This document shows, in pieces, positions 10,245 through 59,357 of a DNA stretch of 64,000 bases. The stretch is from Mustelus asterias (Eukaryota): the NCBI RefSeq assembly GCF_964213995.1, contig NC_135803.1:126852001-126916000 (forward strand), written 5' to 3'. Every line of letters starts with the position of its first letter. Positions within the stretch are counted from its first letter, which is position 1. A program made the translations under genes and the position numbers. The notes under the pieces were generated by a model. The model ran no database searches and was not told the DNA's origin. It saw nothing but the letters and a program-made list of their open reading frames with translations.

Positions 10245-10404
10245 ATGATGTGGAGATGCCGGCGTTGGACTGGGGTAAACACAGTAAGAAGTCTTATAAC
10301 ACCAGGTTAAAGTCCAACAGATTTATTTGGTAGCAAAGCATGAGTGGCTTTTGCTACCAAATAAACCTGTTGGACTTTAACCTGGTGTTGTAAGACTTCT
10401 TACT
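10245..10404. mobile_element. Penelope-like element stub with fold-back (inverted) structure
   Basis: Inverted arms ~10283-10337 / ~10348-10404; TSD (T)ATCTTATAAAC at 10233-10244 and 10404-10415; same terminal sequence as the GIY-YIG-bearing copy at 58892-59357. Confidence 0.85.
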
Positions 10405-16220: not shown

Positions 16221-16407
16221 CAGTGTAGTTAGATGAGTAGTTGATGGGATCAAGAAATTTTTTAACCAGTTCACAGTTGGATAGCATATGCTGTGTTGTG
16301 ATGAAATTCAGATAATTCTGAAGTCCTCGTTGTCTTTCTGCTATGAACTCACGATCCATATTTCCAATGAGTTTTTTGGGAGGTAGAGGTAGGATCAGAC
16401 CTGAGAT
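16221..16407 (-). CDS. PXK: PXK coding exon 4 (PX domain)
   Basis: ISGLILPLPPKKLIGNMDREFIAERQRGLQNYLNFITTQHMLSNCELVKKFLDPINYSSNYT; 187 nt, ag/gt. Confidence 0.97.
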
Positions 16408-17320
16408 CTGTAATAAACTCAAATTTAGTGTAACTGTAAGCATATTGATTACTTAACATGTTCACTTTGTTCTATGTTTATGATTTGTAAAACAAATTTA
16501 AATCTAATTTCACTTTGTTGCATGTTTTTCAACAGCTCATCGCATAATAGTCTTTAAAAGCTCACATTAATAAGATTTTGATAATATTATATTTCATGGA
16601 GTTTTGCATAGGGTGGACTAATGTTTATGAACTTTTAGGTTAGCCACTTATAAAATAGGTCAGTTTGAATTTCTGCTAGACAACCAACAATCAAGTTAAT
16701 TGGGAAACAAGAAGGCAGATTCTTGTGAGAAACTATACTTAATGAATTTAAGACCTCAATGGTGCCACTAAGTCTGAATTCAAAGGGTTTTCTGCTTCGA
16801 ACGCATAGTTAACAACATTTGAGTTCAATAGCTTGACCTTCGGATGACACCTTGGGGGGGGAATTTTCCCACGGGAATTGTAGCGGGTGGGGGAATCCCT
16901 CAAGGTGGGATTTTCTGGTTTTGGGGCGAGTGCAGCAGAAAATCCCACCCTTTATGTTTAAACAAACCATGTATTACCTTAATTGATCTGTACCAGAAGG
17001 AAATCTTTATTTTTTGATATTATGAAAGGAAGTGTTTTTAACTTAGTGGCTTCAGTATCTGTTGGAGCTTGGGTTAAAATATGTCGACAAGAGAATGTGA
17101 CTTTATTTATGACTGTTGTGCCTCAGTTTATGACCCATAAAGCAGGGTTTGCAAAGGTAGGATGACAGAACAACTTAGCACCCAATTGCCAATAAAAGAG
17201 GTGAAATTGGACTATTTCCAAAAATAGGATCCCAGAATAAGAAGTTGTGGGGATAAAAGTTGGAGAACTACTTTTCGTGTTGGCAGTTTGTACCATGGCT
17301 TCAATGGCATATTTATTCTG

Positions 17321-17740
17321 AGTAAGAAGTCTCACAACACCAGGTTAAAGTCCAACAGGTTTATTTGGTAGCAAATACCATAAGCTTTCGGAGCGTGCTG
17401 CTCCTTCGTCAGATGGAGTGGTCTCTGTGCCATTACTGTTGTGTCAGATCAGCCTTTTGATGTTCAAGCCTTATTTGAAATGTTTAGTTTTCAAATAAAT
17501 AAGCTACTAGCTGGCTATAATGGATTTAGAAGCTATTTTTAAGAGCTCAAGTGTTCAAGCCTTATTTGAAATGTTTAGTTTTCAAATAAATAAGCTACTA
17601 GCTGGCTATAATGGATTTAGAAGCTATTTTTAAGAGCTCACAATTTTTCTGATGTTTCACATACATGTTGGACTTTAACCTGGTGTTGTGAGACTTCTTA
17701 CTGTGCTTACCCCAGTCCAACGCCGGCATCTCCACATCAT
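17321..17740. mobile_element. Penelope-like fold-back insertion containing captured host intron sequence
   Basis: PLE termini in inverted orientation at both ends; TSD (CAT)ATTTATTCTGAG at 17308-17322 and 17738-17752; interior 17427-17667 is the reverse complement of 18232-18381 with an internal duplication. Confidence 0.88.
17378..17416 (-). ncRNA. Minimal type I hammerhead ribozyme motif (Penelope-associated)
   Basis: Minus strand reads CCAU-CUGACGA-A-GGAGC-AGCAC-GCUCC-GAAAGCUU-AUGG: stem I CCAU/AUGG, intact CUGANGA and GAAA core, stem II GGAGC/GCUCC, palindromic AAGCUU stem III. Confidence 0.8.
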
Positions 17741-18728
17741 ATTTATTCTGAGACATAGATCATCATTACCTCGGAGACAGAAGAAAACAGACCTTTGCTG
17801 CGCTGCCAGTATTCAAGCAATCCTAGCACCTTGAAGGCAAGATATTTACAGGCTGCCTCACTACTTCTTGTCAAGTATATTTACCTTTTAATAAGTTCTG
17901 CTTAATTACAAATACTAGCCATCTGTACTTTGTTAGGTCAAGCACAATTGAGGACCCAAGTGCTAGAAATTACAATTCAGATCGTAGAATTTTAATTAGA
18001 AGGATTTTATACCTTGGAACCCTCAAATTGTCATATCATTTACATTTTAATTACAACCTTGTCATTTCTAACCACTGTCGCTGCTGTAATTGATTAACAT
18101 TCTCAACTTTATATTTTCGTAAGGGTTTTATATTAAGGTTTACCCTCCTTATGACTTTCAAAATAAATTACGTATATTTGGTCAATGAAATGAACCAATC
18201 CTGAAAAGAGAGCAACGTTAGAAAACTGCAGCATGTATGTGAAACATCAGAAAAATTGTGAGCTCTTAAAAATAGCTTCTAAATCCATTATAGCCAGCTA
18301 GTAGCTTATTTATTTGAAAACTAAACATTTCAAATAAGGCTTGAACATCAAAAGGCTGATCTGACACAACAGTAATGGCACCCTCTAATCTTGTACAGAA
18401 ATTAGTGTTCAAAATATTCATAAGCAATTAAATCCTTAAGACAAAATAAGACTTCAAATATTAGCTTTTACAATAATATTCATTCTGCAGTTTCAAGATA
18501 TGAAATTAATGCGAGCTTTATAACAATTTGGATCTCCATCCAATAAACTGTAGTAACACCTTTTGGATGTCACATTCTAAATTTTACAATCATTTCCAAA
18601 TTCTCACTAGTATTAAGATTTGTTTGCAAATATATTTTCTTAATAGGTCATCATTTTTTCAAACTCCACTAAACTGGTTTGCTCCTGCAGTACATTAAAA
18701 ATAAAGACAAAAGCAATTGACGAGATAC

Positions 18729-27169: not shown

Positions 27170-28500
27170 CACAGAATCACAGTATGGTTACAACATAAGA
27201 GGCCATTGTACATGCTGACCCTACAAGAGCAACTCGACTCATCCTAATAATCCCCCCGCCTTTTGCCTGTTCTCCTGTAAGTCCTTTTCCTTCAGATAAT
27301 TATCCAATTCCCTTTTTAAAACGAAATTGAATCTGTCTCCACCGTACTCTCAAGAAGTTCATTCTAGATCATAACCACTTGTGATGAAAAACATCTCCTT
27401 CCTCATTTTGCCTCTGATTCTTTTGTCAATCACTTTAGTGATATCCTCTGGTTCCTGAACTTTCTTTCGGAGCGTTCGCTGCTCCTTTGTCAGGTGAGTG
27501 GCCACTCCCCTGACGAAGGAGCAGCGAGCGCTCCGAAAGCTAGTGGCTTGTGCTACCAAATAAACCTGTTGGACTTTAACCTGGTGTTGTGAGACTTCTT
27601 ACTGTGTTTACCCCAGTCCAACGCCGGCTTCTCCACATCCTGAACTTTCACCAGTTGGAACAGCATCTGCTTAAGCATTCTGTCAGAATCCTCATGATTT
27701 TGAGCTCCTCTTTCTAATCTCTTCTCAAGTTTCTCTTCTGTAAGGAGAACAGTCCCAGCTTTGCCACGTAACTGGTTCAGGGGATGAGAGACTTCATTCT
27801 TGTATATGTTTTCTGTATCCTCTCCAATGCCTTCTCCCAGAATTAGACACTATTCCAGCTGAGGCTGAACCAGTGACTTATTAAGGTTCGCCATAACTTC
27901 TTCCTTGCTTTTGTTCTCTACATTTCTGTTTGTAAAGCCCAGGATCCCAAATGCCTCATAATCACTTCCTCAACCTGCCCTGCCACCTTCGATAATTTCT
28001 GTACATATGCCCAAAAGTCACAATGCTCCTGCACCTCCTTTAGAATTGTATCCTTTATTTTATATTGCTTTTCTTTGTTATTCTTACCAAAATGTACCAC
28101 TTCACACTTTCCTGCATTAAATTTCATCTGCCACATGTCTGCCCAATTCATGAGCTTATGTCCTCTATAAATCTATGACGGATGAGGAAAATAAATTGCA
28201 GGGCTATGCAGGTAGATCAGAAAAAAATGGGACTGCCTGGAAAGCTCTGCAGAGAGCCAGTACTGACTTGATAGGCTGAATGACATCCTCATGTCATTAT
28301 GACTATTGTTATCCCCATAAGTTCACAATACTTCCCAGTTTTGTCATCTGCAAATTTTGAAATTGAACGCCTAGGTCATTTCATACAGATCAAGAGAAGT
28401 ACTGGTCCTAATACCAACCCATGGGTATCCCCACTATACACTGTCTTCCAATGTGTAAAAACAATCATTACTTTTTCCTGCCACTTAACCAACTTCATAT
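27170..28500 (-). mobile_element. Decayed CR1 LINE fragments
   Basis: WADMWQMKFNAGKCEVVHFGKNN ORF2 motif at 27918-28151. Confidence 0.85.
27464..27639. mobile_element. Penelope-like fold-back stub with head-to-head hammerhead motifs
   Basis: Palindrome centred ~27501; + strand CTGACGA..GGAGC/GCTCC..GAAAGCTA at 27510-27542; TSD TCCTGAACTTTC at 27453-27464 and 27638-27649. Confidence 0.85.
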
Positions 28501-38990: not shown

Positions 38991-40617
38991 GAAAGAACTG
39001 ACATTGAAAATTAACTGTTATAAATATGGAGTCTCATTTCCTTAGGTTTTGATTTTTAAAATATTCCAAAATTTCTAAATGATGAAATTCCTCGATTTGG
39101 ATTAGTTTTCTCAATGCATGTAGGTTTACATGTCTCAATCATTGAAGCAGATTGTCAAGCTTGGAACTGGCTTATCTAATTGGGAAATGCAATATTTTTA
39201 TAGGGGCTTGAGCAAAGAATTAAATTCCTATTCAGTCAGATGGTCATTGTAGAATTGTCAGTGAAATAATGTTCCACTGATACTAGTACAGAATGACAGC
39301 TGACTGTGCAATTTTGTACCTATAAATAATCTTTATCCTTCATTTATTCATTTGCAGGTTGAGGGTGTCACTTACAAGATCAGCATACAATGCCCATCCC
39401 TAGTTGTCCTTCAGATGTACAGTGAGCATTGAGCTTGAAATAATGCAAATCATGTGTTGAAGGTCTCCCCTTCATGCTGTTCGACAGAGTTTTGAACCAA
39501 CAATGATGAAGGACCAATTCCTCATTCGGATGGTGTGTGACTTGGATGGGACTTTAGAGGTAGTGGATTCCCTTGTGTCTGTTGCTCTAGTTGTTCTAGG
39601 TGTTGGGGGTCATGAGTTTGAGAGGTGTTGTTGAAGGATTCTTGCTGAGTTGCACTTGTGCATCTTGTAGATGGTATACACTGCAGCCACAGTGTGCTGG
39701 TGGTGGATAGGTTGCCAATCAAGTGGATTGTTTTGTTGTAAATAGTGTTGAGCTTTTTGAGTGATGTTGGTTCTTGAGTGTTGATGACCTGCATTCATCT
39801 AGGTGAATGGAGAGTATTTCATGAAACTCTGACTTGTGCCTTGTAGGTGATGGAAAGGAGGCAACATTCACCATGGAACACTGAACCTCTGGTTTCCTCT
39901 TGTAGCCATAGTATCTGTGTAACTGGCCCAGTTAAGTTTCTGGAATGATGACCACTATCACCACCACACAACACTGCATAAACCACCCCCTCCGCACCAC
40001 CCCGCCACAGGATATTGATGTTGGCAGACTCAGCATTAGTAAGGCCCTTTAATGTCAAACGGTGATGGTTAGATTTTCATTCGCTGGAGATGGTAATTAC
40101 CTGTGTAAGATTTTGAGAATTCTACTAATTTTTGTAATTTGTAACATCTATGGATTTTATCCTGTAAGCAGTTTAACATTAAGCGGTTCAGGTCTGACTT
40201 GTTGTTTGCCAATTAGCAATCAAGATGGTCGGGAAAACAGGAAAAGCGGATGTTTGTGAAGAAACAAGCTTGTTTTATGTTTTATGATGGAGCTCATTTG
40301 AGTTGAGCTGAAGCTATCTCAATGACCAAAATATGACTGGGTGTGTGTTTTTGTCAGCTTGAAAAAATGGCTAAAACAGTGTGAATGTAAGAGCACCCGG
40401 AGGAAAGTTATGCAGACATGGGGAGAACATGCAAACTCTAGGATGGCACAATGGCACAGTGGTTAGCATTGCTGCCTCACAGTGCCAGGGCCCGACTCAT
40501 GCCTGAGTGAGGTTCAGTGCTACATTCCTTTGTCCCTTGGCTCTAAAGGGGGATTAGGGGCGAGGGTCTAGGGTTCAGTGAATCAAGCTGAGTCCTATCA
40601 CTGTGAATGAAACATTC

Positions 40618-40860
40618 ACAGTAAGAAGTCTCACAACATCAGGTTAAAGTCCAACAAGTTTATTTGGTAGCACAAGCCACAAGCTTTTGAAGCGCTGCTC
40701 CTTCATCAGGTGAGTGGTAGTTGTGTCCACAAACGGGGTATATAAAGACACAAACTCAATTTACAAGATAATGGTTGGAATGCGAGTCTTTACAGGTAAT
40801 CAAGTCTTAAAGGTACAGACAATGTGAGTGGAGAGAGGGTTAAGCACAGGTTAAAGAGGT
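40618..40860 (-). mobile_element. Penelope-like 3' fragment with degenerate hammerhead
   Basis: Matches 58895-59130; core reads CUGAUGA...AAAAGCUU (GAAA mutated). Confidence 0.85.
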
Positions 40861-58891: not shown

Positions 58892-59357
58892 ATTGTAAGA
58901 AATCTCACAACACCAGGTTAAAGTCCAACAGGTTTATTCGGTAGCAAAAGCCACTAGCTTCTGGAGCGCTGCTCCTTCGTCAGGTACGTGGGAGTTCTGT
59001 TCACAGACAGGGTATATAAAGACAAACTCAATTTACAAAATAATGGTTGGAATGCGAGTCTTTATAGGTAATCAAGTCTTAAAGGTACAGACAATGTGAG
59101 TGGAGTGCACGTTAAGCACAGGTTAAAGAGATGTGTATTGTCTCCAGACAGGACAGTTAGTGAGATTTTGCAAGCCCAGGCAAGTCGTGGGGCTTACAGA
59201 TAGTGTGACATGAACCCAAGATCCCGGTTGAGGCTGTCCTCATGTGTGCAGAACGTGGCTATCAGTCTCTGCTCAGCGACTCTGCGTTGTTGAACCCTGG
59301 TGTTGTGAGACTTCTTACTGTGTTTACCCCAGTCCAACGCCGGCATCTCCACATCAG
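58892..59357. mobile_element. Penelope-like element (fold-back) retaining the GIY-YIG endonuclease C-terminus
   Basis: Minus 59292->59194 encodes QQRRVAEQRLIATFCTHEDSLNRDLGFMSHYL*, the typical PLE E..LI..F.T...GLN.D ending; TSD GGCTAATAAT at 58882-58891 and 59358-59367. Confidence 0.9.

Follow-up and report, generated by a model that had tools for sequence, protein, structure and literature searches.

How a piece of host intron came to lie, inverted and partly doubled, inside a transposon insertion in that same intron is the question raised by the locus studied here, which belongs to a window of 64,000 nucleotides (the whole stretch of DNA analysed) from Mustelus asterias. The initial annotation had described a Penelope-like insertion that captured neighbouring intron sequence, and had put forward nascent pre-mRNA of the host gene as a candidate template. 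Our follow-up confirms that the capture is real and that it recurs in the element family, and it leads us to weigh anew the nature of the template.

Structure and age of the insertion

A repeat search of the window recovered a 15-nt direct repeat bracketing the insertion and, inside it, inverted element arms (17321-17360 and 17663-17702; Table 1). Contigs from organisms B and D join 17307 to 17738, an empty site that confirms the target-site duplication (TSD); the inverted Penelope termini lie within this single TSD, as annotated. The first 3 of the 15 bases also fit the element tail end and the last 2 the start of the left arm, the commonest length of exact TSDs in the family being 12 nt (35/84). 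The left arm likely represents cDNA primed at the left target end.

By exact matching, captured segments 1 and 2 are reverse complements of the source over 123/123 nt (18381-18259) and 116/116 nt (18347-18232), respectively, so that the inverted intron copy first reported as free of mismatches stands, except for two extra bases where the segments meet. Because these segments overlap in the source, an 89-nt stretch is duplicated in direct orientation (17461-17549 and 17552-17640, 100% identity), in agreement with the single re-priming originally proposed. Matches to the source in the 3.68-Gb genome number three (very common words skipped), namely the source itself and the two captured pieces; the full-length element copies and other loci searched gave no match to the source. 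The captured piece is thus the copy of a local, single-copy template that had been supposed, and neither element consensus nor a high-copy repeat. The host gene, which we take from sequence likeness to be PXK, lies on the minus strand, as judged from a PX domain (PF00787) at 16240-16422 together with exon order. T-A skew in this gene, measured over 1-32 kb at -0.03 to -0.11, is consistent with that assignment, but the four other capture sites tried gave noisy values, and strand skew was set aside as an indicator of transcription.

Table 1. Features of the insertion, its source and the captures found in sister copies (window positions; TSD, target-site duplication)
Feature	Position	Strand	Description
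Host intron, PX-domain gene	16408..18728	-	contains insertion and source; source upstream in transcription
Left TSD copy	17308..17322	.	15 nt, including 3 + 2 bases common with element ends; empty site in organisms B and D
Left inverted arm of Penelope pseudo-LTR	17321..17426	-	start is the inner tail end; BLAST against sister copies
Minimal hammerhead-ribozyme-like motif (predicted)	17378..17416	-	inside left arm; alignment
Captured segment 1	17427..17549	-	inverted copy of 18259-18381; 2-nt microhomology with left arm
Extra bases (AG) at re-priming junction	17550..17551	.	junction crossed by contigs of X1, X2, X4 and X9
Captured segment 2	17552..17667	-	inverted copy of 18232-18347; 2-nt microhomology with right arm
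Right arm, 73 nt, element sense	17668..17740	+	contains ~37-nt Penelope tail 17703-17739
Right TSD copy	17738..17752	.	repeat search; empty site
Capture source, single-copy intron sequence	18232..18381	.	480-629 nt right of insertion; once in organism B (X8)
Capture in L011			112 nt direct + 129 nt inverted; left flank
Capture in L030			177 nt inverted; left flank
Capture in L080			164 nt inverted; right flank; 97.6%
Capture in L082			89 nt direct; left flank; one-armed copy
Capture in L197			97 nt direct; left flank; 90%, old copy

Contig depth in X1 is 70 over the 89-nt piece, 49.8 over the twice-present piece and 23.7 over single-copy flank, and in X2, from the same sample, 49.5, 32.4 and 15.8 for the same three classes. 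In both, the 3:2:1 ratio fits the predicted copy numbers and puts the 89-nt part, annotated as occurring twice in the insertion, at three times the flank. Read-derived contigs cross two junctions, the middle one and the right one; the middle one is crossed as well in a second sample from the same study. For the left junction (17426/17427), support comes from the assembly and from the balance of depths, the displayed contigs spanning two of the three junctions, so that read support extends across most but not all of the structure first described. An assembly artefact could still be sought at that junction, all the more as X1 and X2 probably derive from the source sample of the assembly itself and accordingly speak against assembly error but not for spread in the population; yet with the depth ratio, two spanned junctions, a concordant second sample and five sister events (below), we find such an artefact barely credible.

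At position 18304, the window source and both captured copies carry G, as does organism A, while organisms B and D carry A. The captured copies therefore share a base absent from B and D, and the capture is younger than that change. Across the family, the identity of captures to their sources follows copy age, with 97.6-100% in young copies and 90% in an old copy (85% tail). A contig from another locus contains a 21-nt near match to capture positions 17447-17467, ten bases before an element arm, probably by chance.

The element family and its local captures

The last 46 nt of the right arm occur in 5,559 exact copies in the genome. Near-intact full-length units of ~3 kb are present at two loci (L047:4068-7040 and L062:4814-7787), the latter with a 765-aa open stretch, which marks the family as recently active. 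Both encode a reverse transcriptase (RT; RVT_1, E 1e-7) followed C-terminally by GIY-YIG-like and CCHH residues seen by eye in the translation, the GIY-YIG domain itself giving no Pfam match at E 0.01 in these two units. A CX4CxxC linker before the GIY-YIG region falls within the CX2-5CxxC pattern given for Neptune and Nematis in PMC8557442, and, as judged from this linker and from the domain layout set out there, the element is a Penelope-like element of Neptune/Nematis type. The pseudo-LTR is in partial tandem and overlaps the ORF start, as seen in L044 and L047, where the tail end marks the beginning of the ORF. The left arm starts at the beginning of the ~37-nt tail, its terminus being found in 76/100 listed copies and a TSD in 80/100.

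The predicted hammerhead-like motif comprises a core and two stems, with 94.7% of cells paired and one pair showing a two-sided change (9 copies). In these features it matches the minimal hammerhead described in PMC4209133, and a search of three loci returned no Rfam match for it. The predicted cut lies 98 nt from the tail end, and 26/102 short right arms end between -10 and +9 of it, a weak clustering, since the palindromic nature of the motif makes arm ends less sharp. Four more family copies lie in the window (10245-10404, 27464-27639, 40614-40860 and 58895-59356), none with a local capture. Elsewhere, L076, L077 and L085 share an identical 12-nt TSD and several other copies share another, which suggests that one site in a host repeat was hit more than once. 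Two further entries, L204 and L205, are identical over C3571:11945-12515 and C1:1752930-1753500, likely through a duplicate small contig.

Our main survey covered 100 listed exact-tail copies, the first 100 of the 5,559 and all on contig C1, with flanks of 1.5 kb for 30 and 4 kb for 70. A further 99 tails comprise 79 in 1.415 Mb and 20 in 296 kb, 12/32 tails of the latter set being repeats of copies already counted. Not every surveyed tail marks a separate insertion, some being second or internal ones, and old captures below ~88% identity would escape. The scan for internal segments matching nearby sequence, by which the initial annotation had hoped to find further cases, did find them in 4/100 listed copies (L011, L030, L080 and L082; 95% interval 1.1-9.9%) and in 1/99 other tails (L197); local captures recur at about 2-4% of family copies. 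A set of 70 tiles (700 kb), evenly spaced or next to one another, held few copies and no capture beyond those named.

With the window copy included, all six sources lie 70-690 nt from the insertion, four in the left flank and two in the right. The sister captures, of ~90-235 nt and in both inverted and direct orientations, sit at the same arm-junction position as the window capture, and for every captured piece the best match is in its own flank, the repeat matches elsewhere being shorter or weaker. Junction microhomology, to which the initial annotation had drawn attention, amounts to 2 nt at both ends of the window copy, which is near chance, and to overlaps of 0-6 nt in the sister events, while re-priming repeats occur in 3/6 events (6 nt in L080, 12 nt in L082, plus the window copy). 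Captures are found in 3/7 copies with a tail-primed arm of <=85 nt against 1/93 with longer arms (Fisher p = 0.0008, for a cut-off set after the data had been seen); orientation and side statistics are those of n = 6 events. None of the 6 captures shows splice junctions, poly(A) or a distant RNA source, the sources all being local, and none of the 199 other tails surveyed contains a distant, spliced or small-RNA capture.

Several candidates were rejected. Long foreign blocks in L024, L062, L072, L073, L089 and L151 are multi-copy repeats, read as later nested insertions; L088 carries a tandem repeat, L130 a 17-nt piece with its own TSD, and L045, L057 and L126 self-copies of 12-22 nt, and the upstream sequence of L006 is plain flank. 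A minus-strand match of 139 nt and 97% in L086 lies inside a repeat and was left uncounted as ambiguous. That copy is a complex rearrangement in which each arm has a tail and is followed by an identical 68-nt target stretch, in inverted orientation, with ~2 kb of another repeat inside. The pieces inserted at the arm junction in L044 (3900-3926, 26 nt) and L087 (3916-3957, 41 nt) come from the beginning of the element ORF, which lies downstream of the RT start, and thus represent jumps onto element sequence and not host captures. The Rfam U2 match in L030 was dismissed as an RNA switch because the U2-like stretch belongs to the local source. A ~320-nt repeat unit with a U2-snRNA-like start, possibly a U2-derived SINE, is found in tandem inside a Penelope copy (L177:8250-8890) and also at L030:700-898.

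Joining of the two arms

Canonical Penelope elements (Craig 2021, PMC8557442; Frangieh 2024, PMC11167929) resemble the present family in their inverted 5'-truncated arm and 30-40-bp end tail, in the two RT start sites that bound this tail and in the cutting and extension of both target strands. They differ in that arm joining, local capture and matched arm ends do not figure in the descriptions excerpted. As the anole element cuts and extends both strands and starts reverse transcription twice, the two arms may be understood as two target-primed cDNAs that need joining. The steps that complete Penelope insertion after cDNA priming await validation according to PMC11167929, and this family provides an extensive natural record for their study.

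Both arms end <=5 nt from the same element position in 41/113 two-armed copies (L004-L173 and the window copy), a fraction that constrains models of the Penelope inverted structure; 5,000 shuffles averaged 6.0 such copies and never gave more than 15. Matched ends are found in L011, L030 and L080 but not in the window copy (77/144). We infer that the two cDNAs often terminate by run-off at a common RNA end; the resulting ends, being of the same sense, would be unable to pair, so that a bridge is required. Matched ends might alternatively arise by self-priming (PMC3846280) or by hairpin trimming, though the 160-235 nt of host DNA that separate the arms are harder to reconcile with either route.

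We consider it reasonably probable that the window contains a young Penelope-like insertion whose arms were joined via copies of flank DNA, made at integration by a stopped cDNA priming on the exposed flank; the arms, TSD, empty site, exact local copy, 89-nt repeat and recurrence are the observed elements of this account. The element protein would cut both strands and prime two cDNAs, one per tail end, as it does in vitro for the anole Penelope (PMC11167929). The tail-primed cDNA would stop after 73 nt, and its 3' end would fold back to the same strand, on the resected right flank 480 nt off, through a 2-nt exact and an 8/11 loose match. A low-processivity polymerase would then copy 116 nt, slip back 89 nt and copy 123 nt, after which a 2-nt match would join the product to the left cDNA and fill-in would fix the structure. 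For this polymerase, a repair enzyme of the host, of polymerase-theta or SD-MMEJ kind, is likely, being a somewhat better candidate than the element RT, from which sequence alone cannot separate it.

Consistent with such bridging, the capture lies exactly at the arm-arm junction within one TSD, the insert is, as expected of a templated insertion, a copy of sequence near the break, and short re-priming repeats with small overlaps are reminiscent of SD-MMEJ (PMC5728401). The end of the right-arm cDNA matches the source start at 8/11 nt, a score equalled by 9/5,972 nearby sites, at a comparison length chosen post hoc and more weakly at other lengths, whereas the left-arm cDNA end matches at 3/11. 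The difference speaks weakly for synthesis on the minus strand that set out from the right arm. This upholds the polarity argument of the initial annotation, as does the position of the host gene on that strand. Since the minus strand is of pre-mRNA sense and is also the one bared by resection of the right flank, the window locus cannot decide between DNA and RNA, as had been acknowledged from the start in the view that the minus DNA strand fits equally well. The sister events tilt the reading towards a DNA template, with their sources within 700 nt, on both flanks and in both orientations, their re-priming repeats, the absence of spliced or distant sources, and L082. Orientation is itself no test, because any single captured segment fits the resected-strand model once the priming end is chosen. 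Several observations sit uneasily with the DNA-bridging account: the direct-then-inverted capture in L011 needs at least one template on a strand that resection would remove, the templates, of 90-180 nt, lie at greater distances (70-690 nt) than most reported ones, the element-internal jumps in L044 and L087 would suit RT switching, and the evidence comprises six events in all, with microhomologies of only 2 nt at the window locus.

The pre-mRNA template put forward in the initial annotation implies that the element RT jumped from its own RNA to nascent host pre-mRNA and re-primed once, the product then being joined to a second cDNA. At the window locus polarity and position fit, with a minus-strand gene and a source on the upstream side with respect to transcription; one such case has been reported for L1 (PMC10191854), jumps to downstream sequence of the element itself occur in L044 and L087, and L011 could be accounted for if both cDNAs had copied one and the same bottom-strand template. 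However, the source of L082, whose host is a soluble guanylate cyclase gene on the minus strand, lies on the downstream side and would need priming from a bare target end, and the lack of distant, spliced or small-RNA captures in the surveyed tails also weighs against an RNA template, so that the pre-mRNA jump appears unlikely and is not our preferred reading. Near L011, L030 and L080, Pfam identified no host exon in 87 ORFs (from the 140 best of 1,082), and introns can be long. We also think it rather unlikely that, more generally, the Penelope RT makes two run-off cDNAs with unpairable ends and itself jumps to any local nucleic acid, nascent pre-mRNA included, writing hundreds to thousands of local intron duplications as a fossil record of RNA-templated germline break sealing.

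Even less probable is a scar of later repair, in which the inverted arms form a hairpin or cruciform, its centre breaks and flanking sequence patches the break. This too predicts the junction position of the capture, and three other young two-armed captures lie between arms with equal ends (69/67, 73/72 and 342/343), the most hairpin-prone form; against it, L082 has one arm only, the arms of the window copy are unequal, capture divergence matches element age, and a break at a hairpin centre usually trims the two arms unequally.

Relation to templated insertions in other retroelements

Local templated inserts are already known for L1, L2 and R2 and, within our searches, are newly met here in Penelope elements, for which the open-access literature yielded no description of local capture. 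The initial remark that in-cis capture had not been described accordingly holds for Penelope in the literature searched but not more widely, since DNA fold-back and pre-mRNA versions are both described for human L1 (PMC10191854). There, Nam 2023 reports fold-back inversions of 52-220 bp (0.3% + 0.1% of events) and one co-inserted neighbouring pre-mRNA. Zumalave 2024 (bioRxiv 10.1101/2024.08.27.596794) reports 22 templated insertions among 3,598, the tumour inserts being <250 bp with templates within 15 bp of the site; Mendez-Dorantes 2024 (PMC11702581) adds three L1 templated insertions and PMC13174262 describes RNA chimeras at L1. Like the L1 inserts, for which a DNA polymerase is proposed, the present captures copy near-target host sequence into a retrotransposition event inside the TSD; unlike them, they belong to the Penelope class, are germline and fixed, lie between two inverted arms and use templates 70-690 nt off instead of within 15 bp. 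The rate of 4/100 listed Penelope copies compares with 22/3,598 for L1 (p = 0.005), where the pipeline was not aimed at such inserts.

Similar likenesses extend to other systems. The 5' extra nucleotides of the zebrafish L2 element ZfL2-2 (Yamaguchi 2014, PMC4245944) are flank-derived, lie at the inner junction and were proposed to provide a stable join before ligation, but they amount to several nucleotides only and occur in one-armed LINE insertions. In R2-protein snap-back junctions (PMC11371274) and in SD-MMEJ of the snap-back and trans types (PMC5728401), a cDNA or break 3' end primes on itself or on nearby sequence, giving an inverted copy with short matches and repeated priming; these systems are, however, engineered, and the SD-MMEJ examples excerpted use templates within ~30 bp. 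Among Penelope elements, pseudo-LTRs of Adineta vaga (Arkhipova 2013, PMC3846280) enclose unrelated sequence inside a TSD, which was read there as in-trans mobilisation to new sites, with no adjacent source named in the excerpted account.

The family record comprises the 5,559 exact-tail copies, of which ~220 (95% interval 61-552) would contain a local capture at the observed rate, and many older copies; scored against gene annotation, these would test DNA against nascent-RNA templating on a number of events well above that of the L1 tumour sets. Penelope activity is, moreover, a source of small local duplications, both inverted and direct.
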